From the NCBI GenBank assembly GCA_045114615.1, contig JBGUKU010000099.1, positions 1,385 through 65,384 of the forward strand: DNA of 64,000 nucleotides. The letters run 5' to 3'. Under the pieces are notes generated by a model, which worked only from the letters and a program-made list of their open reading frames with translations, was not told the origin of the DNA and ran no database searches. Each line of letters starts with the position of its first letter. The first letter of the stretch is position 1. Shown one piece after another: positions 18,486 through 29,890 of the stretch. Origin of the DNA: Anaerovoracaceae bacterium. GTDB taxonomy: Bacteria > Bacillota > Clostridia > Peptostreptococcales > Anaerovoracaceae. The translations under genes and the position numbers were made by a program.

Positions 18486-19196
18486 CTATTTGTTTTTCAG
18501 CGGAGCCCCGGAAAATCTGACTGCGACTCTCGCAAGCACCTCAGTCGGATCAATGGCAGGTATGCCTGTTTCCCCTATGAGATCGAAAGCCATTGGCAAT
18601 TCTGTGCATCCGAGAATCAGGACTTCTGCCCCTTTACCTTTCATCTCGGAAATAACTCCATCTATATCAAGATCCGAAAAGTCCATTATGCCTGCCTTTA
18701 CATGGTCATATATGAGACTCATGATGATCTTCTGTTTTTCTGCAGAAGGATATACAGGATCTATACCCTCTTCTTTGAGTGCATCACCATATACTCCGCT
18801 CCGGCAGGTACCATCTGTCGCAAGTACTCCGGCCTTCTTCACACCCATCTCAAAAATAAGCTGTGCAGTCAGCCTTGGCATATGCAGTACAGGTATTTTT
18901 ATGTCTTCACATACACTGTCATAGAAGTAGTGTGCGGTATTGCATGCCATCATGAGGACATCTGCGCCTGCTGATTCAAGGCGTTTAGCGCTTTTCTTCA
19001 GTTCAGGACGCGGATCGGTCCCGCCGTGAAGTATCGCGGCAGTTCTGTCTGCTATCCTCGTATTACAGTCTATCAGCACAGGAATGTTATCCTGATCGCA
19101 GGACGCAACAGTATTATTGAGTATCTTCTCGGCGAGGTCGTAGGTAGCCAGAGGACCCATCCCGCCGATTATTCCTATCGTTTTATAACTGTTCAT
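18486..19196 (-). CDS. Aspartate/glutamate racemase family protein (two-Cys type)
   Basis: 236 aa. IGIIGGMGPLAT N-terminus and both catalytic-Cys motifs are present: ACNTAHYF (Cys85) and LGCTELP (Cys197). Confidence 0.85.
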   Translation of the reverse strand: MNSYKTIGIIGGMGPLATYDLAEKILNNTVASCDQDNIPVLIDCNTRIADRTAAILHGGTDPRPELKKSAKRLESAGADVLMMACNTAHYFYDSVCEDIKIPVLHMPRLTAQLIFEMGVKKAGVLATDGTCRSGVYGDALKEEGIDPVYPSAEKQKIIMSLIYDHVKAGIMDFSDLDIDGVISEMKGKGAEVLILGCTELPMAFDLIGETGIPAIDPTEVLARVAVRFSGAPLKNK

Positions 19197-19225
19197 TTTA
19201 ACTACCTTCTATATGCAGCTCCGAA

Positions 19226-19981
19226 TCAAAGTATTTCTGTGAGTATCCTTATGAAGAAGATCACCAGTACGGTAAGCATGAGCGGACGTACAGCCTTAGC
19301 TCCCTTCTTTTCGAAGAATGTCACACCGATGTAATTGCCTATGATACCGAATAAGCCTCCGAAAAAACCCAGCAGTAATATTACCTTACCGTTCATAAGG
19401 TAAACTGCCAGTGACGATAAATTGGTCGTCAGATTTATGGATTTTGCAACTCCGTTGGCCTCTCCGAGTCTGAAATGCGCGAAGGCTGTCAGGAGCAATA
19501 TGAGGAATGTCCCCGTACCGGGTCCGTAGAACCCGTCATAAACGCCTATAAGAAGTGCCACCAGCGCTGACCGTATAATGGTCTGCCGATTGCTCAGCGG
19601 TTCCTTTTCGTCCATCTTTTTATTCCGCATGACATACAGTGCCGTCAGCGGAATTATGACAAGCATTATCCTTTTGAACAGTTCGGCATTCACCATAAGC
19701 GCGAGATTTGCCCCGGCTGATGAGCCTATAATGGCCATCAGAATACATAAGGCAGCCCTGCGCCACGGGATATATCCAAGTCTTGCAAGCCTGTATGTTG
19801 ATATTGTAGTGCCCATACCCGAACTCAGTTTGTTGGTCGCTATGGCGTTATGAACAGGCACGCCGGCAATCATATAAGCGGGCAGCGAGATAAGCCCCCC
19901 GCCGCCCGCAACTGCATCAACGAATCCCCCCAGAAATGTCAGGGGGCATACTATTAAGAAAGTCCAAATACTCAATTCCAT
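19226..19981 (-). CDS. TauE/SafE (TSUP) family anion exporter
   Basis: Start refined to ATG 19981 (MELSIWTFLIV...), because the longer track ORF would overlap bioY. GGFVDAVAGGGGLISLP motif and ~8 TM segments. Confidence 0.75.
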   Translation of the reverse strand: MELSIWTFLIVCPLTFLGGFVDAVAGGGGLISLPAYMIAGVPVHNAIATNKLSSGMGTTISTYRLARLGYIPWRRAALCILMAIIGSSAGANLALMVNAELFKRIMLVIIPLTALYVMRNKKMDEKEPLSNRQTIIRSALVALLIGVYDGFYGPGTGTFLILLLTAFAHFRLGEANGVAKSINLTTNLSSLAVYLMNGKVILLLGFFGGLFGIIGNYIGVTFFEKKGAKAVRPLMLTVLVIFFIRILTEIL

Positions 19982-20013
19982 TCCGGTTTTATCTCTTAGT
20001 CCTTTATAACCAG

Positions 20014-20589
20014 TTAACCAATTATAAGCGGTCTGAGTCTGCGCGTCATAACCGCTGCCAGCAGTATTTTCAGTGCGTCCGGAATAATGTACGGGAACAC
20101 ACACCATGAAAGAGCCGTTATCAGTCCGATGCTTCCGCTGTCCCTTGCATATACCACCATAAACCATGCGGTACCGAATGCATAGCAGACCAGCAGACCT
20201 GCGATCATCGACGCAACAAGCGCTTTAAAACTCCTGCCCAGAAGGCGTTCCATCAGCCACATCAGAAGTGCTGAAAATACAAATCCGATTATGTAACCTC
20301 CGGTGGCGCCGAACAGATGCCCAATGCCGCCCGTAAATCCGGAAAAGACAGGAAGTCCTGCCGCACCAAGCAGCAGATATATGACTACCGCAAGTGTTCC
20401 GTTCCTGCCCCCAAGCAGACCCACAGCGAGAAATACTCCGAATGTCTGCATGGTGAACGGTACGGCTGCAGGGATAGATATCCACGAGCATACAGCCATG
20501 ACCGCGGCACAAACCGCGATCATGGCAGCATCTTTTGTCTGAATGCCTTCATGGCCTGTTTTGGTTTTCACTTCAGTATAATTTGACAC
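20014..20589 (-). CDS. bioY: Biotin transporter S-component BioY
   Basis: 191 aa with 5-6 TM segments. Motifs PFTMQTFGVFLAG-like and GPTGGYL-like (GATGGYIIGF) are typical of BioY. GTG start with AGAAGG RBS. Confidence 0.8.
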   Translation of the reverse strand: MSNYTEVKTKTGHEGIQTKDAAMIAVCAAVMAVCSWISIPAAVPFTMQTFGVFLAVGLLGGRNGTLAVVIYLLLGAAGLPVFSGFTGGIGHLFGATGGYIIGFVFSALLMWLMERLLGRSFKALVASMIAGLLVCYAFGTAWFMVVYARDSGSIGLITALSWCVFPYIIPDALKILLAAVMTRRLRPLIIG

Positions 20590-20611
20590 TCAATTTACCT
20601 TCTTGATTAAC

Positions 20612-21850
20612 TTATTTTTTTGATTTAGGAAATTCCTTTCCCTCTCTTCTTGTCTCATAATCGCTAATGATCATAGCTGCCGAGAGGTCTCCTACAACGT
20701 TGATTCCTGTACGTCCCATATCGAAGATACGGTCTACGCCGGCAACGAGCGCAATACCTTCAACAGGCAGTCCAACAGACTGGAGTACCATAGCGAGCAT
20801 GATCATGCCTGCACCAGGTGTTCCGGCTGTTCCGACCGAAGCGAGCGTAGCTGTCAGAACGATTGTAACCATCTGGCCGAGTGTCAGATGGATTCCGTAG
20901 CAGCTTGCGATGAAGATAGCGCAGACACCCTGATAAATCGCGGTACCATCCATGTTGATGGTAGCACCAAGCGGAAGTGTGAAGCTGGCAACATCCTTGC
21001 GACCGCCCATCTTCTCAGCACATTCCATCGTGACAGGAAGTGTTCCAATTGAAGATGTACTGGAGAAAGCGAACAGAAATGCCGGGAGTGCTCCCTTGAG
21101 GAACTTGGCCGGACTCATATGGCCGAGAGTCTTGACCGCGAGCGAGTATGTGAACAGTGCATGTACTGCGTATGCAATGTATGCTGTCAGCAGTACCATT
21201 GCGAGTGATCCGAGTACCTGAGGTCCATTGACTGCCACTACCGGTGTGATCAGGCAGAATACAGCGATCGGAGTCATCTTGATGATTCCTCTCATGATCA
21301 CCATGAACACTTCATAAGCACTGTCGATCCATTCCTTGAACGGAAGTCCCTTGTCCCCGGCAATGATGATGCCAAATCCGACGAAGAGAGCAATAACGAT
21401 TACCTGCAGCATAGTATTATTTACCATAGGCTCGAACAGGTTGGACGGGAAGATATTTACTATCGTGTCCATGAAGCTCGTAGGCTCTGCAGCTTCATAT
21501 TCCAGCGCGCTTGTCTCCAGGACCTTATATGTTCCCTTGAAAATGTTCGCAAAGAGAAGTCCGATAACGATGGCGAACGCTGTAGTGCAGAAGTAATAAA
21601 TGATAGTACGGAGTCCGATAGTTCCTACCTTCTTGATGTCCGAGAGCGATACAACACCCTGAACTATCGAAGTGATTACGATCGGTACTACGATGAACTT
21701 GAGCAGGTTGAGGAAGATAGTACCAAATGGCTTGATATAAGCTTCGGTAAAATCTGCCGCACCCACTGCAAGGAAGATGAGTCCCGCTACAATACCCAGG
21801 CCGAGAGCAATAAAGATTTGAATCGGCAATGAATTTTTAATTTTCTCCAT
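20612..21850 (-). CDS. Dicarboxylate/amino acid:cation symporter (DAACS; GltP/DctA/SstT family)
   Basis: 412 aa. Polytopic, with the SSIGTLPVT and GATINMDGTA re-entrant-loop motifs characteristic of the family. AAGGAGG RBS. Confidence 0.85.
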   Translation of the reverse strand: MEKIKNSLPIQIFIALGLGIVAGLIFLAVGAADFTEAYIKPFGTIFLNLLKFIVVPIVITSIVQGVVSLSDIKKVGTIGLRTIIYYFCTTAFAIVIGLLFANIFKGTYKVLETSALEYEAAEPTSFMDTIVNIFPSNLFEPMVNNTMLQVIVIALFVGFGIIIAGDKGLPFKEWIDSAYEVFMVIMRGIIKMTPIAVFCLITPVVAVNGPQVLGSLAMVLLTAYIAYAVHALFTYSLAVKTLGHMSPAKFLKGALPAFLFAFSSTSSIGTLPVTMECAEKMGGRKDVASFTLPLGATINMDGTAIYQGVCAIFIASCYGIHLTLGQMVTIVLTATLASVGTAGTPGAGMIMLAMVLQSVGLPVEGIALVAGVDRIFDMGRTGINVVGDLSAAMIISDYETRREGKEFPKSKK

Positions 21851-21939
21851 AAAAACCTCCTTAAACCTATTAACCTCCTTACATTATAGTTAGCACATGG
21901 CTGAAGTCCTCACCCTTCCAGCTATGTGTATACTATCGT

Positions 21940-22665
21940 CTAAATACTGTCAGCTGATTCTCTGACATTAGCGCCTGCCATTCTTATGGCTGCCTTTGCG
22001 AGAATTATAGTAGGATCTACAAATGCATCCGATCTCAGTCCCATTAAGCTGAAGGCGATAGGAAACTCCGTACTTGCGAGTATGAGCACCTCTGCGCCCT
22101 GTTTGCCAAGATCTCCGATCAGGTTCTGCATGTCTTCGCGGACAGCATCCGGAATGACAGCTCTGCCCTTTTTGACATAGTCGTATACAAGAGACATTAC
22201 CAGCTTTTGCTGTTCCTCATTCGGATACACGGTCTGGATTCCCATGCGCTCAAGGGCATGACCGAACAGTCCGCTCTGAACAGTGCCGTCAGTCGCGAGG
22301 ACCGCAGCTCTGTTAACTCCATTGAGTTTCAGAAGTTTAGCCGTCTCTTCAGGCATCTCGATAATAGGGATGCTGATTTTGTCCTTTATGTCTTCTACAA
22401 AGCAGTGTGCTGCATGGCATGCTATCACTATGAAGTCTGCTCCGGCCGCCTCAAGTCTTCTGGCACTTGCCAGCATCTCTGGCGCAGGGCTCTCGCCTCT
22501 GCCCAGGATAGCTTCCGTCCGGTCAGGTATCCTGGTATCGTTGTCGACTATCATAGGGATGTGTTCCTGATCTGAATAGGCGTCTGTCATGCTTATGATC
22601 CTGCTCATCAAGTCTACTGTCGCAGCAGGACCCATGCCGCCCATGATACCAATGGTCTTAGGCAT
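21940..22665 (-). CDS. Aspartate/glutamate racemase family paralogue lacking the second catalytic Cys
   Basis: 241 aa. IGIMGGMGPAAT N-terminus. The first motif is IACHAAHCF (Cys83). The second motif reads LASTEFP (Ser198, codon AGT at 22072-22074) instead of LGCTELP. Confidence 0.8.
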   Translation of the reverse strand: MPKTIGIMGGMGPAATVDLMSRIISMTDAYSDQEHIPMIVDNDTRIPDRTEAILGRGESPAPEMLASARRLEAAGADFIVIACHAAHCFVEDIKDKISIPIIEMPEETAKLLKLNGVNRAAVLATDGTVQSGLFGHALERMGIQTVYPNEEQQKLVMSLVYDYVKKGRAVIPDAVREDMQNLIGDLGKQGAEVLILASTEFPIAFSLMGLRSDAFVDPTIILAKAAIRMAGANVRESADSI

Positions 22666-22730
22666 TTCAGCCTCCTTTCTGAAGATGTGACAGCCGCGCC
22701 TTTATAAAGCGCGGCTGTCGCTTAAATGCT

Positions 22731-23948
22731 TTACTTGAGTAATGCCGCTATAGCCTCAGCACATTTTACGCATTTCTCTTTCGAGATCGACGCGATGGAT
22801 ACGCGGATTCCCTTTGCCAGTGCCAGGCAGAAAATATCCTGCTCTTCAAGCTTCCTGCCTACTTCAGCAGGATCGTCGCATGCGATGGTCACAAAGAATC
22901 CGGCTCTGAACGGTACGCACTTCACTCCGTTGTCGTTGAGAGTCTTTTCAAAAATGCGGCCGCGCTCGAGGAGCATGTCACGGTATACTCTTCTCTCTTC
23001 GTCTACCTTTGCCCTGAGTTCAGGATCTGCGTAGATCTTGCCCATTACTACCATAGCTGAACGGTTGCAGTTCGACCATGTGGAACGGGCTGCATACTCT
23101 GCTGCGCGTCTGAACTCTTCAGCGTCTTCCGCGTTCTTAGCCATGCATACGATGGCTCCGAGTCTCATGCCGTATGCAGTGAGAGTCTTGGAAGCACTGT
23201 ATCCGAATATTGTCAGAACATGATCTCCGAGATCAGCAAGTTTTGGCACAAATGCGCGCACTTCGTCTTCTTCGCCTGCATAGTCGATGTATGCGACATC
23301 GAGGAACAGAACCACCTTGCATGCTGCCTTGTTGATGACAGCGATCATTGCATCCCAGTCTTCAAGGCTGAGTGAGTAGCCGGTCGGATTGTGAGCAGGT
23401 GTGTTGATCATCAGCACTACCTGATCCTGTACTGCAGCAAGCTCGTTCAGCTGCTTTTCAAGATCTACAGCATCAAAACCGCCGTCTTCATTGAAGAATC
23501 TGAAAGTTTTGAGCTTGCGGCCCTGTGACACTGCGATGTTTTTATAGTTTGCCCAGCACCAATCATGTGTAAGAACACTGTCTCCATAGTTGGAATAATT
23601 CTGGATCACGCTTGTGATACTTCCGGTTCCTCCAGGTGTCACGCACAGATTGATGTGCCCGGATGGCTCATAGTTTCCGAAAAGAGCCTTTACTACTGCT
23701 TCCTTGAATGCAGGTGTTCCGGTGATCGGAGCATACTCAGCATAGTCCGCAGGTGTCAGGGTGCGAATCGCTTCTGCGACCGATGACATTACTACGAGGT
23801 CACCGTTATCGTCGAGCAGAGCTCCTACTGTAGCGTTTACTACTGCATCCTTACCCTTTGCGGCGATAGCCGCTTTTGCGCGTCCGCTCAATGCGAATAC
23901 TTTATCTGCGACAGGAATGGTCCTGCCATTCTCTTTCACGAAACCCAT
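22731..23948 (-). CDS. Class-I PLP aminotransferase, AspC/TyrB-like (aspartate aminotransferase candidate)
   Basis: 405 aa. PLP-lysine context GYSASKTLTAYGMRLG resembles AspC SYSKNFGLYNERVG. AAAGGAGAG RBS. Confidence 0.75.
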   Translation of the reverse strand: MGFVKENGRTIPVADKVFALSGRAKAAIAAKGKDAVVNATVGALLDDNGDLVVMSSVAEAIRTLTPADYAEYAPITGTPAFKEAVVKALFGNYEPSGHINLCVTPGGTGSITSVIQNYSNYGDSVLTHDWCWANYKNIAVSQGRKLKTFRFFNEDGGFDAVDLEKQLNELAAVQDQVVLMINTPAHNPTGYSLSLEDWDAMIAVINKAACKVVLFLDVAYIDYAGEEDEVRAFVPKLADLGDHVLTIFGYSASKTLTAYGMRLGAIVCMAKNAEDAEEFRRAAEYAARSTWSNCNRSAMVVMGKIYADPELRAKVDEERRVYRDMLLERGRIFEKTLNDNGVKCVPFRAGFFVTIACDDPAEVGRKLEEQDIFCLALAKGIRVSIASISKEKCVKCAEAIAALLK

Positions 23949-23968
23949 TTGTTATCTCTCCTTTGCGT

Positions 23969-25366
23969 TTATACCGGATATGCCTTGTTCTTCATGTCAA
24001 TCGCAGCAGGATCCATCTCGCTGCGAAGGGCTGCTCTTCTCTTGAAGTAGTCGAGCGCTACCTGACCGAACAGAGCGTAAGTCAATACATCCTCATCCTG
24101 CTCCTTGTAGTCGCCTACTTCTGCCGTGAGCTTCTCAAGTTCAGGCTCAAGCAGGTCTGCAGGTCTGCAGGTGATTCTCTCGCTCTCATCGATCTTAGCG
24201 AGAACCTCAGGATTCATAGGCATAGGTGTTGAACCGTATTTGCCTTTGAGAATCTCCTTTGTCTCCTTGGACAGCACCTTATATCTCTCACCCATCAGAA
24301 CGTTGAGAACAGCCTGTGTTCCTACGATCTGTGATGAAGGTGTTACCAGAGGCGGCATGCCGAGGTCGTTTCTTACACGAGGTACTTCCTGAAGCACTTC
24401 AAGGTATTTATCCTCTGCATTCTGATCTTTAAGCTGTGATACAAGGTTCGAAAGCATTCCGCCAGGTACCTGATAAATAAGAGTCTTGATATCTGTTCCA
24501 AGAACCTTGGTGTTCATGAGACCGCTCTTGAGATCCTTGTCTCTGATGGTCTGGAAGTGAGCAGCTATCTTTTCGAGCTTGCTGATATCGAGACCTGTAT
24601 CGTATTCAGTTCCCTTGAATGTCTCCACCATTACCTCGGTAGAAGGCTGGCTTGTTCCGCCCGAGAACGGCGAAATGGCTGTATCGATGACATCAACGCC
24701 GTTCAGAGCCGCTACGTAATAAGTGATAGGAGCTACACCACTGGTGCAGTGTGTATGCAGCTGGATAGGAATATCCACTGTCTCCTTGAGCATCTTGATC
24801 ATCTCGCCTGCCGCTGTCGGCACCATGAGACCCGCCATATCCTTGATGCAGATCGAATCTGCTCCAAGCTCCTGGATACGAAGAGCGCGGCCCTTCCAAT
24901 ACTCAGGTGTATACGGCTCTCCGATAGTATATGACATCGCTACCTGTGCGTGAGCTCCGTAAGCCTTGGTCGCCTTTACTGCTGTCTCAACATTGCGGAG
25001 GTCATTCAGCGCGTCGAAGATCCTGATCCTGTCAATACCGTTGTCGATCGACTTTTTGACGAAATAGTCAACTACGTCATCTGAATAGTGTCTGTAACCG
25101 AGAAGGTTCTGGCCTCTGAGCAGCATCTGAAGCTGTGTGTTAGGCATAGCGGCACGGAGCTTTCTGAGTCTTTCCCACGGATCCTCATCGAGGAATCTGA
25201 TACATGAGTCGAATGTAGCTCCGCCCCAGCATTCGATGGCTTCATAACCGACTTCATCCATAAGAGCCAGTGCAGGTTCCATGTCTTCAAAAGGCATTCT
25301 AGTAGCGATCAGTGACTGCTGACCGTCTCTGATCGCAGTCTCCATTATTTTTATTTTCTTTCCCAT
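23969..25366 (-). CDS. Oxaloacetate decarboxylase alpha / pyruvate-carboxylase-B / transcarboxylase-5S-type carboxyltransferase (no biotinyl domain)
   Basis: 465 aa. N-terminal IMETAIRDGQQSLIATRM TIM-barrel motif, HTHCTSG metal site, conserved C-terminal conserved-region fold. No AMKM motif. Confidence 0.85.
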   Translation of the reverse strand: MGKKIKIMETAIRDGQQSLIATRMPFEDMEPALALMDEVGYEAIECWGGATFDSCIRFLDEDPWERLRKLRAAMPNTQLQMLLRGQNLLGYRHYSDDVVDYFVKKSIDNGIDRIRIFDALNDLRNVETAVKATKAYGAHAQVAMSYTIGEPYTPEYWKGRALRIQELGADSICIKDMAGLMVPTAAGEMIKMLKETVDIPIQLHTHCTSGVAPITYYVAALNGVDVIDTAISPFSGGTSQPSTEVMVETFKGTEYDTGLDISKLEKIAAHFQTIRDKDLKSGLMNTKVLGTDIKTLIYQVPGGMLSNLVSQLKDQNAEDKYLEVLQEVPRVRNDLGMPPLVTPSSQIVGTQAVLNVLMGERYKVLSKETKEILKGKYGSTPMPMNPEVLAKIDESERITCRPADLLEPELEKLTAEVGDYKEQDEDVLTYALFGQVALDYFKRRAALRSEMDPAAIDMKNKAYPV

Positions 25367-25384
25367 TTTATTCCTCCATTGATA

Positions 25385-26500
25385 TCAGACACCGAATATA
25401 GCCATGAATACTCCGGCAGCAACTGCCGTACCGATTACTCCGGCTACATTAGGGCCCATGGCATGCATGAGCAGGAAGTTCGTAGGATCGGCTTCTGCGC
25501 CAACCTTCTGTGAAACTCTCGCCGCCATAGGAACCGCGGATACACCGGCGGAACCGATGAGCGGGTTGATCTTGCCGCCCGACAGCTTGCACATGAGTTT
25601 TCCGAAGAGCACTCCGGCAGCTGTACCGAAACTGAATGCTATCATTCCGAGGATGACGATCTTGATTGTAGTCCACTTAAGGAATGCTTCTGCGCTGGTC
25701 GTAGCTCCTACTGAAGTTCCCAGGAAGATTACTACAATATACATGAGTGCGTTTGAAGCTGTATCCTGCAGCTGACGTACGACTCCGCTCTCACGGAAGA
25801 GGTTGCCGAGCATGAGCATTCCGATAAGCGGTGCTGTAGAAGGCAGTATGAGGCATACTACGATCGTAACGATTATCGGGAACAGAATGCGTTCTCTCTT
25901 GGAGACGTCTCTGAGCTGCTCCATCTTGATTTTACGCTCTGCTTCAGTTGTGAGCGCTTTCATGATAGGCGGCTGTATGATCGGTACAAGTGACATGTAC
26001 GAGTACGCCGCCACGGCGATAGGACCCATGAGTTCTCTCTGTCCCAGCTTCATTGCCAGGAAGATCGATGTAGGTCCGTCCGCTCCTCCGATTATGCTTA
26101 CTGCCGCTGCCTGAGCTTCAGTGAATCCCATGAGCATCGCCAGCAGGAACGCTCCGAACACTCCGAACTGCGCTGCAGCTCCGAGCAGGAAGCTCTTAGG
26201 GTTGGCGATCAGCGGTCCGAAATCCGTCAGTGCTCCGACTCCCAGGAAAATGAGAGACGGAAGTATGGTCCACTCATCGAGCATGAAGAAGTAGTGCAGC
26301 AGTCCGCCTTCTTCCATGATAGGCGGATACAGGTTTACCAGCAGCATGCCGAATGATATCGGAAGGAGCAGGAGTGGCTCATATTCCTTGACAATGGCCA
26401 GATACAACAGTCCGAGAGCAACTGCGATCATGATCACATTGCCTACGGTAAGGTTGAAAAAGCCGGTCTGGTGAGCCAGGTTGAATAAGGTATCTCCCAT
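25385..26500 (-). CDS. Na+-translocating decarboxylase beta subunit (OadB/MmdB/GcdB family)
   Basis: 371 aa, polytopic. Motifs GADGPTSIF and [14 protein letters not shown] are typical of the beta subunit. Confidence 0.85.
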
Positions 26501-26517
26501 TTCTTTACCTCCCGGTA

Positions 26518-26883
26518 TTATTCTACGTAAGCTACAGTCTGGCCTGATGTGGTGGCTTCTCCTTCTGAAACAACGATCTTGCTGACTGTGCCGTCCTTAG
26601 GTGCAACGACAGGGATCTCCATCTTCATGGCCTCGAGTACGATAATTGTGTCTCCGCTCTTGACCTGCTGTCCCTCATTTGCGACGATCTTGAAGACCTT
26701 ACCGGCAGTACCGCATACGACCGGATCGCCCTTTCCTTTTCCGCCGCCGGACTTGCCTGCCGCTTTTTTAGGTGCAGGAGCTGCTGCTGCCTTCGCCGGT
26801 GCTGCAGGAGCTGCGCTGCCGTCTGCCTTTTCTATTTCAACTTCGAATTCTTCGCCGTTTACTCTTACGATGTATGTCTCCAT
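26518..26883 (-). CDS. Biotin carboxyl carrier protein (stand-alone biotinyl domain)
   Basis: 121 aa. Ala/Pro/Lys linker followed by the biotinylation motif [10 protein letters not shown]. Confidence 0.9.
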
Positions 26884-27173
26884 GTTGCCCTCCGTACATT
26901 TCTGACGATGTATCCTTCTTCAGGTACACCCTCTTCATCTTTTAGTTGCTGATGGATCGCTGCCATGATGGCGGCAACGACTTCAGGCCTGATGCCCTCA
27001 GGTTCTTCAGGCTCTGCCGCTGCTGCAGCGGCCTGAACTGCCGGTTTTCTAGGCGCAAATGCCTTACCAAGCAGCCAGATGCAGATCGAAATGAATATCA
27101 GTACGCAGAATACCGTGCCCATTCCGATAAGCGTGTATAGCAGCGCGGTTAAGAATATCTGTCCTAAACTCAT
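26865..27173 (-). CDS. Decarboxylase gamma subunit (OadG family membrane anchor)
   Basis: 102 aa. Single N-terminal TM segment with GMGTVFCVL, an Ala/Pro/Glu linker and a basic C-terminus (IVRNVRR). Overlaps the BCCP start by 19 nt. Confidence 0.75.
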   Translation of the reverse strand: MSLGQIFLTALLYTLIGMGTVFCVLIFISICIWLLGKAFAPRKPAVQAAAAAAEPEEPEGIRPEVVAAIMAAIHQQLKDEEGVPEEGYIVRNVRRATWRHTS

Positions 27174-27181
27174 ATCATCAC

Positions 27182-28528
27182 CTACCTGCTGTTTACGAAC
27201 GTCTGAAGAGCTCCGATCAGATACTTTCTGGAGTCCTCAGGTGCGATCACCTTGTCAGCAAAGCCGTGTCTTGCCAAAGCAACGGCACTAGACTGGGTGT
27301 CGCGGAACTGCTGCTCGAGCTCAGATGACCATTTTCCGAAAATGACCTCTGTAGCCTGGCGCGGTTCTACGATACTTACATTGGCAGTATCCCACATGAA
27401 CACGTAATCAGCACCGAGTCCCTTGGAGTTCATCATACTGTAGGCACTTCCTACGATGGAACCTGTCACAAGGTTGATCTTAGGAACATCTGCTGCTGTC
27501 AGTGCCCTGACCATTCTCTCAGCTGCGCTAGGCAGTAAGATCTCTGTTGCCGAATCAGTATTGTAACCGTCGGTATCAGTAATGGTCAGAAGCGGAATGT
27601 GGAATCTGGTGCAAAGGTCTATCAGCTTTGCAGCCTTGTTGCAGCCGGCAGCTGTCAGACGCTTTTTGCCCTCATACTCATTGCAGGCCACCACTCCGAG
27701 AGGCATGCCCGCGATTCTGATGAATCCGGTCACTATGCTCTGACCTTCGTCGCTCCTGCATTCTATTAGACGGCCGTCATCAGACAGCTCAGCGAGTATC
27801 GCTCTTGCATCTCCGAGGCTGTCTTCGATACCGTCGCAGCTGCGGTTGAGATCTTCGTCGCTTACCTCAAGAACATTCGGCGCAAACTTGCTGCTCGGCG
27901 GCAGGATGTCCACTATGCCATGGATCTTCTCTACGATCTCTGCCCACTCAAATGTACCGTCATTGAGTGCCTCAACATATGGATTGTCACCGATGGCGTT
28001 GCTTACAACTCTCTGCGGGTTAACGAATATGCTTCCCTTATCCTTCTCAATAAAGACAAAGTCTGCAAGCTGTGCAGCGATCGACATTCCCCCGCCGCAC
28101 TGTCCTATTACCGCAACTATCTGCGGTATGATGTGCGAAGCCTCTGTCTGTCTCTTGTAAAGCTTCGCAAACTGATAAAGTCCGTCCAGCCCTTCTTCAA
28201 TACGGAAACCTGCACAGTCAAGGAGTCCGATCACAGGAGCATTTGCTTTGATAGCATGCTCGTACAGATCGACTATCTTGCGTCCGTGCTGTTCACCGAA
28301 TGTGCCGCCCATTACTTCATTGTCCTGGGCATAGACAAATACAAGGTTCCCATTTATCGTGCCGTAACCGGTCACCACGCCGTCTGACTCCTTAACGGAG
28401 TCCGGGTGATAGAACTCGGTAAACCTCGCCGATACATGTTCGCCCATCTCCATGAAGCTGCCCGGATCCAGAAGTTCCATGACCCTGGAAACCACGGCAG
28501 TTCTTTCATCACTTGCGATTACCTTCAT
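27182..28528 (-). CDS. Acyl-CoA-type carboxyltransferase (MmdA/GcdA/PccB, 12S-like), short form
   Basis: 448 aa. DGVVTGYGTINGNLVFVYAQDNEVMGGTFGEQHGRKI and GQCGGGMS motifs of the crotonase-fold carboxyl_trans family. AAGGAGG RBS. First gene of the cluster. Confidence 0.8.
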   Translation of the reverse strand: MKVIASDERTAVVSRVMELLDPGSFMEMGEHVSARFTEFYHPDSVKESDGVVTGYGTINGNLVFVYAQDNEVMGGTFGEQHGRKIVDLYEHAIKANAPVIGLLDCAGFRIEEGLDGLYQFAKLYKRQTEASHIIPQIVAVIGQCGGGMSIAAQLADFVFIEKDKGSIFVNPQRVVSNAIGDNPYVEALNDGTFEWAEIVEKIHGIVDILPPSSKFAPNVLEVSDEDLNRSCDGIEDSLGDARAILAELSDDGRLIECRSDEGQSIVTGFIRIAGMPLGVVACNEYEGKKRLTAAGCNKAAKLIDLCTRFHIPLLTITDTDGYNTDSATEILLPSAAERMVRALTAADVPKINLVTGSIVGSAYSMMNSKGLGADYVFMWDTANVSIVEPRQATEVIFGKWSSELEQQFRDTQSSAVALARHGFADKVIAPEDSRKYLIGALQTFVNSR

Positions 28529-28658
28529 AAGTTTCCTCCTTATGAGCTTATGATAATAGCACTACAATTTCTCCTGATTTTATTCTACATTGAAAGGGGG
28601 TTTTTATCAAACAAAAGGGGCAAACAGAACAAAGCAAAACAAAGCTTCAGCCTTATTG

Positions 28659-28720: not shown

Positions 28721-29890
28721 ATGCAGAAACTATCAAAAAAGACCGAACATTTTACGGATTCCGTGATAAGGCGTATGACCAGGATCGCCTATCAGTATGA
28801 CTCCATAAACCTGTCTCAGGGATTCCCTGATTTCGCACCTCCTGAGATGCTGCTTAATAGACTTGGAGAAACTGCTGACATGCTCGATGTGCATCAGTAC
28901 TCAATAACTTTCGGAGATCCGGGATTCCGCCGGGCGCTTGCCGAAAAGCAGAGCCGTTTCATGGGAATGGACATTGATCCCGATACAGAGATCACCGTCA
29001 CATGCGGCAGCACCGAAGCGATGATGTCATCCGTCCTCACAGTTGCTGATCCGGGTGACAAGGTCATTATTTTCTCGCCTTTCTATGAAAATTACGGCGC
29101 AGATACCATACTTTCCGGTGCTGAACCTATTTATGTACCTCTGGTGCCGCCTGACTTCCATTTTGATCCGGAGGTGCTTGAGGATGCCTTCAGACAGCAT
29201 CCGAAAGCGATGATACTCTGCAACCCATCCAATCCTACCGGCAAGGTGTTTACAAGAGAAGAACTCGAATTCATAGCACATCTTGCGGTTAAATATGACA
29301 CATACGTAATCACGGATGAAGTCTACGAGCACATCATTTATGAGCCATATAAACACACCTATATAGCATCACTGCCGGGAATGCGTGAGCGTACGCTGTC
29401 ATGCTCTTCCCTCTCAAAGACTTATTCCATAACCGGATGGAGGATTGGATATGTTATAGCTCCGCCTGAAATCACCGAGTGCGTCAAAAAAGTGCATGAT
29501 TTTCTGACAGTAGGCGCACCTCATCCACTTCAGGAGGCAGTTATACCGGGACTTCTGGCCGGTCCTGAATACTATGAGGAGCTGATCAGCTTATATACAC
29601 ATAAACGCAACATCTTCCTGAAAGGCCTTGATGACATAGGACTGAATCATACCGATCCGCAGGGAGCGTATTACGTACTCATGGATATCTCGGAATTTGG
29701 CTATGAAAGCGACCTTGAGTTCTGCGAAGACATGACCCGTTTAGTCGGAGTGGCGACTGTACCGGGCTCAAGCTTCTTCAGAGAGCCTGTAAACAACCTC
29801 ATACGCTTCCATTTCGCAAAACAGGACAGCACTTTATATGCTGCCCTGGACCGTCTTGAATCTATAAGAAAGAAAATGCCGTACAAGTGA
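28721..29890 (+). CDS. Class-I PLP aminotransferase (YbdL/kynurenine-aminotransferase-like subgroup)
   Basis: 389 aa. INLSQGFPDF N-terminal motif, NPSNPTGKVF, and PLP-lysine motif SLSKTYSITGWRIGY. Confidence 0.85.
   Translation: MQKLSKKTEHFTDSVIRRMTRIAYQYDSINLSQGFPDFAPPEMLLNRLGETADMLDVHQYSITFGDPGFRRALAEKQSRFMGMDIDPDTEITVTCGSTEAMMSSVLTVADPGDKVIIFSPFYENYGADTILSGAEPIYVPLVPPDFHFDPEVLEDAFRQHPKAMILCNPSNPTGKVFTREELEFIAHLAVKYDTYVITDEVYEHIIYEPYKHTYIASLPGMRERTLSCSSLSKTYSITGWRIGYVIAPPEITECVKKVHDFLTVGAPHPLQEAVIPGLLAGPEYYEELISLYTHKRNIFLKGLDDIGLNHTDPQGAYYVLMDISEFGYESDLEFCEDMTRLVGVATVPGSSFFREPVNNLIRFHFAKQDSTLYAALDRLESIRKKMPYK

Follow-up and report, generated by a model that had tools for sequence, protein, structure and literature searches.

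The oxaloacetate decarboxylase (Oad) sodium pumps are tied by reviews to citrate. The OadGAB enzymes of Klebsiella, Vibrio and Salmonella serve citrate and tartrate fermentation (PMC7274780, PMC8473912); in these enzymes the biotinyl and association domains are part of the alpha subunit itself, and the genetic neighbours are genes for citrate lyase or tartrate dehydratase and not genes of aspartate metabolism. The Klebsiella enzyme translocates up to 2 Na+ per turnover, and the review of fermentative energy conservation that reports this value nowhere mentions aspartate (PMC8473912). Genome papers routinely draw the conversion of aspartate through oxaloacetate to pyruvate as a possible route, and the chemistry itself is therefore unsurprising. 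The closest characterised enzyme to the one described here is the OadA-OadB-OadD-OadH complex of Enterococcus faecalis (oadHDB-citCDEFX-oadA-citMG; PMC6193673, PMC3198936). The present work concerns an eleven-gene cluster at positions 18486-28528 of a 64,000-nucleotide stretch of DNA (the window: contig JBGUKU010000099.1, positions 1,385 to 65,384, assembly GCA_045114615.1) from an Anaerovoracaceae bacterium. Close homologues carry the names Mogibacterium sp. or Anaerovoracaceae, and the host is a rumen Mogibacterium. On balance, the cluster is probably a catabolic operon, which would convert external L- and D-aspartate to pyruvate with export of Na+.

The eleven open reading frames are co-directional on the minus strand and each contains the expected family domain, as indicated by the list of reading frames and by Pfam and NCBIfam profile searches. 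The initial annotation had described eleven minus-strand genes in one order with short gaps, and this description is borne out, with every reading frame and family in its place. In the order of transcription the intergenic gaps are 8, -19 (an overlap), 17, 18, 20, 65, 89, 22 and 29 nt, the BioY-TauE pair apart. The features are as follows.

28582-28610, minus strand: best sigma-70-like site 5' of CT12S, TTGATA-17-TAGAAT (10/12 match)
27182-28528, minus strand: CT12S, a 12S-type (acyl-CoA-type) carboxyltransferase of 448 aa (Carboxyl_trans PF01039, 256 bits)
26865-27173, minus strand: OadG/delta-type membrane anchor subunit (OAD_gamma PF04277, 70 bits)
26518-26883, minus strand: free-standing biotin carboxyl carrier protein (BCCP; OadD/MmdC/1.3S-like) of 121 aa (Biotin_lipoyl PF00364)
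25385-26500, minus strand: OadB-type Na+-translocating carboxybiotin decarboxylase beta subunit (OAD_beta PF03977, 518 bits)
23969-25366, minus strand: 5S/OadA-type oxaloacetate carboxyltransferase of 465 aa (HMGL-like and PYC_OADA)
22731-23948, minus strand: AspC-like class I aminotransferase (AT), a cluster-specific paralogue (Aminotran_1_2 PF00155)
21940-22665, minus strand: Rac2, Asp/Glu-racemase paralogue 2 (Asp_Glu_race PF01177, 142 bits)
20612-21850, minus strand: predicted GltPh-type Na+:aspartate symporter (SDF PF00375, 420 bits)
20014-20589, minus strand: BioY biotin transporter component (PF02632, 150 bits)
19226-19981, minus strand (likely start; the longest reading frame extends to 20167): TauE/SafE-family anion exporter (PF01925, 148 bits)
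18486-19196, minus strand: Rac1, Asp/Glu-racemase paralogue 1 (Asp_Glu_race)

The arrangement is beyond chance, because related genomes share the order, with proteins that are 64-98% identical. The core CT12S-OadG-BCCP-OadB-OadA-AT-Rac-SDF(-Rac) is found in seven Mogibacterium-like loci (L031, L033, L068, L069 and L078-L080). The number of racemase genes before the symporter varies among them, with two adjacent copies in L031, one in L033, L078 and L079 and none in L080; L069 has the order Rac2-SDF-Rac1, with Rac1 directly after the symporter.

Family membership, residues and synteny are the basis on which the substrates, directions and coupling ion of the proposed pathway are inferred. The GltPh-type symporter would import aspartate with Na+, and the two-thiol Rac1 and the Cys/Ser enzyme Rac2 would feed D-aspartate into the L-pool. 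The aminotransferase would then convert L-aspartate and 2-oxoglutarate to oxaloacetate and glutamate, and glutamate dehydrogenase, which is encoded elsewhere in the genome, could regenerate the 2-oxoglutarate. Subsequently, the 5S-type OadA would pass the carboxyl group of oxaloacetate to the free-standing biotin carrier, and OadB, anchored with OadG, would decarboxylate the carboxybiotin and pump Na+ outward. The resulting Na+ gradient could pay for the Na+-coupled uptake, and the pyruvate would enter fermentation. CT12S would share the carrier and the pump and bring in a second carboxyl donor or acceptor.

The membrane part of the pump is recognised by its families. OadB passes the TIGR01109 model (484.9 against a cut-off of 190.6) and OadG passes TIGR01195 (42.6 against 36.05); both are highly conserved, at 92-93% identity. 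OadG has an N-terminal transmembrane (TM) helix, an Ala/Pro linker and the conserved tail EVVAAIxAAIHQ. The BCCP contains the biotinylation motif EAMKM, with the biotinyl Lys87, preceded by an Ala/Pro-rich linker. OadA passes NF006761 (682.8 against 402) and stays just under the cut-off of NF008985 (711.6 against 718). This protein ends after the PYC_OADA domain and lacks both the biotinyl and the gamma-association domains that an OadGAB-type alpha subunit has of its own, the biotin being placed on the separate 121-aa protein. From these assignments we infer that the pump couples oxaloacetate decarboxylation to Na+ export.

In an alignment with E. coli AspC, the aminotransferase keeps Lys246, Arg280 (=Arg292), Arg374 (=Arg386), Trp130, Asn183, Asp211 and Tyr214, and the Schiff-base Lys and both dicarboxylate-binding Arg, the residues looked for in AspC/TyrB enzymes, lie in invariant columns. 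The protein scores below the AspC/TyrB family model (NF006719, 161.4 against 377) and its best matches in the PDB, 3RQ1 and 4EMY, are uncharacterised. The cluster enzyme comes in addition to a paralogous housekeeping aminotransferase found across the family, of which a 47%-identical copy lies on contig C92. In many relatives the housekeeping paralogue is itself fused to an N-terminal TrmB-type (Methyltransf_4) domain (e.g. L046:8628-10514, genome G402); such TrmB-aminotransferase frames, of 626-669 aa, occur in about 12 genomes of the family beside ECF-transporter and thiamine genes. A racemase-aminotransferase fusion had been considered for these frames and was discarded, as they proved to be methyltransferase fusions in this housekeeping context.

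The best solved relative of the SDF protein is the 'Aspartate transporter' 9BGZ (376 bits), followed by GltPh/GltTk (about 288 bits); the scores with the E. coli GltP and DctA models, which are on NCBIfam's own scale, are lower (252 and 218 bits, respectively). The protein carries the NMDGT (...INMDGTA...) and DRIFDMGRTGINVVGD motifs and keeps the Asp/Arg pair of TM8; NMDGT and this pair presumably contribute to the binding of acidic amino acids as in GltPh. By these comparisons, the SDF protein is closest to the solved Na+:aspartate symporters.

The two racemases differ in their catalytic residues. Rac1 has both Cys85 and Cys197 and is a canonical two-thiol enzyme; it matches the aspartate racemase of P. 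horikoshii (1JFL) over its full length with 182 bits and passes TIGR00035 (215 against 93.1). Rac2 keeps the first catalytic cysteine (Cys83), and the second is replaced by Ser198 (codon 22072-22074), with IAC(H/N)AAH where CNTAH is expected. Four orthologues of 77-95% identity share the Cys-to-Ser change, and the Rac2 orthologues form one clade (support 95/97). The E. coli enzyme EcL-DER, with Thr83 and Cys197, is active on L-substrates only (PMC12838360, PMC12661438). Because the Cys/Ser pair of Rac2 mirrors this L-specific Thr/Cys pair, Rac2 may act, by symmetry, on D-aspartate only, and the conserved one-thiol variant could be a natural D-specific enzyme.

This chain of aspartate uptake, racemisation, transamination and Na+ pumping had been proposed in the initial annotation. 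It fits the synteny, the specificity residues, the likeness of Rac1 to 1JFL and the genome, in which aspartase was not found, and a number of points weigh against it. The assembly (2.35 Mb in 128 contigs) is 86% complete, which makes every absence reported here provisional. AspC-type enzymes accept cysteate and cysteine sulfinate too, and TyrB keeps Arg292; therefore, aspartate is only the probable amino donor of the aminotransferase. Both racemases exceed the NCBIfam model of the cysteate racemase CuyB (NF052483; 226.9 and 225.2 against a cut-off of 190). Outside Anaerovoracaceae, the five genes from CT12S to OadA are found amid housekeeping genes and without aspartate genes, so that the pump is not intrinsically an aspartate device, and CT12S has no role in the proposed aspartate pathway. 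A complete citrate lyase cluster lies on another contig (C101, L077:2407-13152), and aspartate is therefore not the sole possible source of oxaloacetate for the single pump. Finally, contigs from the RNA libraries of four bovine/gut studies (four libraries) cover 19.8-28.6 kb at an identity of at least 93%, a level at which they pool relatives and prove neither a single transcript nor a relative level.

The CuyB scores belong to an alternative in which the pump is a mere neighbour. The aminotransferase, racemases, symporter and TauE would import, racemise and transaminate cysteate or cysteine sulfinate, giving 3-sulfopyruvate or beta-sulfinylpyruvate, and the latter would yield pyruvate and sulfite, with the sulfite exported by TauE. 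The cuy locus of Bilophila likewise pairs an SDF transporter with CuyB (PMC11193023), and TauE belongs to a sulfite-exporter family. The CuyB model, on the other hand, does not separate aspartate from cysteate racemases. It is also passed in 1 of 14 control genomes and by racemases that stand beside an ATP-grasp ligase and MurE (193.7 and 192.6 bits), and the match therefore gives no indication of cysteate. In two of the family's loci (L062:4591-8097 in G448 and L063:8212-11659 in G512) an ATP-grasp protein, the Asp-racemase homologue and a MurE-like ligase are encoded in a row that looks like a peptidoglycan D-aspartate cross-bridge module; since the racemases of both rows pass the cut-off, the model would label aspartate racemases 'cysteate racemase'. 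No CuyA-type (PALP) gene is present in the cluster or directly beside it (CuyA was sought nowhere else in the genome), and the cluster has no sulfolactate or sulfopyruvate enzyme. Most orthologous clusters lack TauE, and the tight and recurrent adjacency of OadA and the aminotransferase would be left unexplained. The sulfonate alternative is thus very improbable.

The same rows bear on the direction of the aspartate pathway. D-aspartate is probably made in Anaerovoracaceae, because racemase homologues adjoin the ATP-grasp ligase and MurE, a point that counts for the catabolic reading as well. The cluster might instead be anabolic: an ATP-free transcarboxylase of the 12S, 5S and biotin-carrier proteins, or the pump reversed by the Na+ gradient, would carboxylate pyruvate to oxaloacetate, from which the aminotransferase would form L-aspartate and the racemases D-aspartate for the cell wall. 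Aminotransferases are reversible, the 12S-type, 5S-type and small BCCP proteins are the subunit set of a transcarboxylase, and pyruvate carboxylase, which many relatives have, was not found in this genome. A homologue of the putative ATP-grasp D-aspartate ligase was not found in it either, and a cell-wall role for both racemases is therefore less favoured; moreover, the racemases of the cluster form a clade apart from those in cell-wall contexts. All close relatives have an aspartate importer within the operon, both OadB and OadG are retained with high conservation, and a source of carboxylated acyl-CoA was not found, neither the mutase nor AccC being detected. Taken together, the evidence renders the anabolic direction distinctly improbable.

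A further alternative holds that a general pump, fed by oxaloacetate from citrate and by an acyl-CoA, merely abuts a unit of aspartate uptake and assimilation that serves nitrogen or amino acid supply, with no dedicated energy-conserving pathway. The five-gene module CT12S-OadG-BCCP-OadB-OadA is self-contained elsewhere, in about 60 Lachnospiraceae loci and others, and the aminotransferase has a widespread housekeeping enzyme as its paralogue. The citrate lyase cluster on C101 is co-directional and contains aconitase, CitD, CitE, CitF, isocitrate dehydrogenase, CitC, CitX/CitG, a LysR regulator and glutaminase, which suggests a possible route from glutamine or glutamate by way of isocitrate and citrate to oxaloacetate, and so to the same single pump. 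The notion that the classical citrate link had been replaced consequently fails, given that the only pump of the genome coexists with a full citrate lyase cluster elsewhere.

The junction between the two supposed units argues against this separation. OadA and the aminotransferase are adjacent in at least six Anaerovoracaceae genera, and the five pump genes are followed directly by the aminotransferase in Emergencia timonensis and four further genomes (G425, G458, G466 and G536). The OadA-AT gap is 18-35 nt in E. timonensis, G425, G458, G463 and G536, and is kept despite an aminotransferase identity of just 43-46%; it is about 620 nt in G466. Aminotransferase-racemase pairs occur in G533, G421 and G463, the last with the order OadA-AT-AsnC-racemase in a locus that ends at the contig edge. 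The cluster aminotransferase is, in addition, an extra copy besides the housekeeping one. The RNA contigs bridge the SDF-Rac2, Rac2-AT, AT-OadA, OadB-BCCP and BCCP-OadG junctions, two of which join the pump to the aminotransferase and the aminotransferase to Rac2. In three runs the flanks of the cluster are nearly bare, and in three runs the contig depth drops sharply above about position 28640; the sparse coverage of TauE, Rac1 and the flanks is no evidence of absence. As evidence of expression, these contigs are supportive only. The account of two independent units is unlikely.

In the Lachnospiraceae module, the OadG-like subunit has about 250 aa, and its OAD_gamma domain is preceded by an additional N-terminal stretch that weakly matches DUF3887; it is seen at L037:5588-6349 and in the equivalent gap of about 60 Lachnospiraceae loci (L082-L150).

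CT12S stands at the head of the module. Its score with the mmdA model TIGR01117 is 256.2 against a cut-off of 998.8, far from an MmdA assignment; its best PDB matches are the beta subunits of PCC (about 230 bits), and its match to GcdA is slight (46 bits). It departs from the canonical enzymes in the oxyanion-loop motifs, with DCAGFRIEEG and VGSAYS in place of DSGGARIQEG and YGGAYI. Its Lachnospiraceae counterparts are 36-41% identical, and the lineage as a whole has DCAG(F/I/L)R and G(S/T)xY in place of DSGGAR and GGAY. By sequence, CT12S belongs to a distinct and divergent carboxyltransferase lineage. The initial annotation gave the family of this carboxyltransferase and its place in the cluster correctly and left it unexplained; the protein belongs to the five-gene module that stands alone in Lachnospiraceae.

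Several acyl-CoA substrates of CT12S have been considered. The supply of malonyl-CoA by the 12S-5S pair in place of acetyl-CoA carboxylase is without support, because the genome lacks any detected biotin carboxylase AccC and FabF and so has no evident need for malonyl-CoA; AccC is present in three of four Lachnospiraceae genomes with the five-gene module. Methylmalonyl-CoA was set aside, as the mutase was not found (PF01642 has no match in the assembly, and the controls respond). Glutaconyl-CoA is neither supported nor refuted: the similarity to GcdA is minimal, and glutaconate CoA-transferase was not searched for. The genome has 14 matches to HGD-D, with annotated examples on C100 (L071:5978-7246) and C59 (L072:1614-2765) and others on C65, C53 and C69. 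Three of these were annotated. Two are anaerobic reductases of the double-cubane-cluster type; the remaining one is a pair (L070) that resembles the 2-hydroxyacyl-CoA dehydratase HadBC and comes with an activase and a CoA-transferase of family III.

CT12S might serve as a scaffold or in transcarboxylation, because the subunit set equals a transcarboxylase plus a pump: a 12S-type protein, a 5S-type protein and one small biotin carrier are encoded side by side, with the beta and gamma membrane subunits in addition. A predicted complex of CT12S with the OadG tail scored 0.00 against a mark of 0.32, a result that counts neither way. One may imagine the five-gene core as a hybrid of transcarboxylase and Na+ pump, in which one swinging biotin carrier would move CO2 among the 12S-type site, the 5S-type site and the membrane decarboxylase, and the cell could switch among Na+-exporting oxaloacetate decarboxylation, acyl-CoA decarboxylation and ATP-free transcarboxylation. 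In Mogibacterium this hybrid would be wired to D/L-aspartate through the Na+ symporter and a unidirectional (D-to-L) Cys/Ser racemase. The hybrid is a tentative and rather doubtful reading.

In the favoured pathway from aspartate to pyruvate, BioY would supply biotin to the only biotin enzyme of the genome, and TauE would be an accessory. CT12S (the sole PF01039 gene), OadB, OadA and BCCP are each present in one copy, according to tblastn and profile searches, and the pump complex is, provisionally, the only biotin enzyme found; the linked BioY therefore makes sense. BioY and TauE are a recent lineage-specific insertion, not core members, as judged from their position between the symporter and Rac1, which is limited to the window and L068. 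BioY is divergent and upstream of the module in L079 and L080, and TauE is absent from the orthologous clusters L031, L033, L069 and L078-L080. Biotin supply by BioY, as the initial annotation had it, agrees with the single biotin enzyme; neither BioY nor TauE, both of which that annotation listed in the cluster, is a conserved member. The longest TauE reading frame runs 154 nt into BioY; the likely start is Met63 (MELSIW..., position 19981), which would separate the two genes by 32 nt and yield a protein of 251 aa, the length of the L068 orthologue. Similarly, BioY probably starts at Met23 (position 20523), with 169 aa as in L068.

Promoter and terminator scans of the region gave counts equal to the shuffled expectation. 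A 10/12 sigma-70-like site (20021-20049, minus strand) falls inside the BioY gene at its 3' end, a short distance upstream of the probable start of TauE, in a region where the number of such sites is at chance; it could be an internal promoter for TauE and Rac1. No regulator of the operon is evident within the window. Divergently upstream of the operon, L031 and L033 carry a LysR regulator gene; the window and L068 have a second aminotransferase gene there. In the window, this gene (28721-29890, plus strand) encodes a class I enzyme of the methionine/kynurenine type, with 371 bits against the NF006488 cut-off of 498. Just upstream of the LysR gene in L033, a locus of a related Mogibacterium genome (L033:6333-8542), are an ATP-dependent PEP carboxykinase, another enzyme of the oxaloacetate node near the pump, and an AsnC-type regulator.

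If the catabolic reading is true, asaccharolytic Anaerovoracaceae of the rumen and gut draw energy from aspartate, including the D-aspartate that bacterial cell walls release. The cluster would then sustain a Na+ circuit of its own, with the cost of the symporter covered by the pump, and aspartate would join citrate, tartrate, malonate, succinate and glutamate as drivers of decarboxylation-dependent Na+ pumps. The analysis also brings to light a pump module of five genes, two of them for carboxyltransferases, that is common in Lachnospiraceae.

The cluster shares parts with several known systems. With the E. faecalis complex it has in common the split alpha subunit, a 5S-type OadA without biotinyl domain, a separate small carrier (OadD), OadB and a small anchor. 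In E. faecalis, however, the genes form part of the citrate lyase locus, with citrate as their inducer, the anchor is OadH and not an OadG-family protein, and the locus is without a 12S-type carboxyltransferase, aminotransferase, racemase or aspartate symporter. The OadGAB enzymes share the OadB and OadG families and the 5S-type domain, and the predicted chemistry is the same, i.e., oxaloacetate to pyruvate and CO2 with Na+ export.

The MmdABCDE and GcdABCD pumps resemble the cluster in their 12S-type carboxyltransferase and beta pump, in an anchor of the delta/OadG type and in a free BCCP that bears an Ala/Pro linker. CT12S differs from their carboxyltransferases by its distance from MmdA and GcdA and by its altered active-site motifs, and the mutase was not found in the genome. 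The transcarboxylase of Propionibacterium (12S/5S/1.3S) matches the cluster in its set of 12S, 5S and small carrier. To our knowledge, no characterised enzyme combines both carboxyltransferases with a pump.

The cuy locus of Bilophila wadsworthia (SDF, CuyB, the D-cysteate sulfo-lyase CuyA and RidA; PMC11193023) likewise pairs an SDF importer with an enzyme of the Asp-racemase family. Both would be catabolic clusters for an acidic amino acid in which the racemase acts before the degrading enzyme. CuyA and RidA are missing from the present cluster, and an L-specific fold-type I aminotransferase would require racemisation from D to L, not from L to D. The literature on Mogibacterium or on aspartate racemase with oxaloacetate decarboxylase yielded no description of this linkage, and that on a dual-carboxyltransferase module in Lachnospiraceae or C. 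thermocellum yielded no description or biochemical study. The enzyme families are well known, a dedicated operon with symporter and racemases was not found described, and the advance over the known systems lies in the wiring and the substrate range, not in the mechanism.

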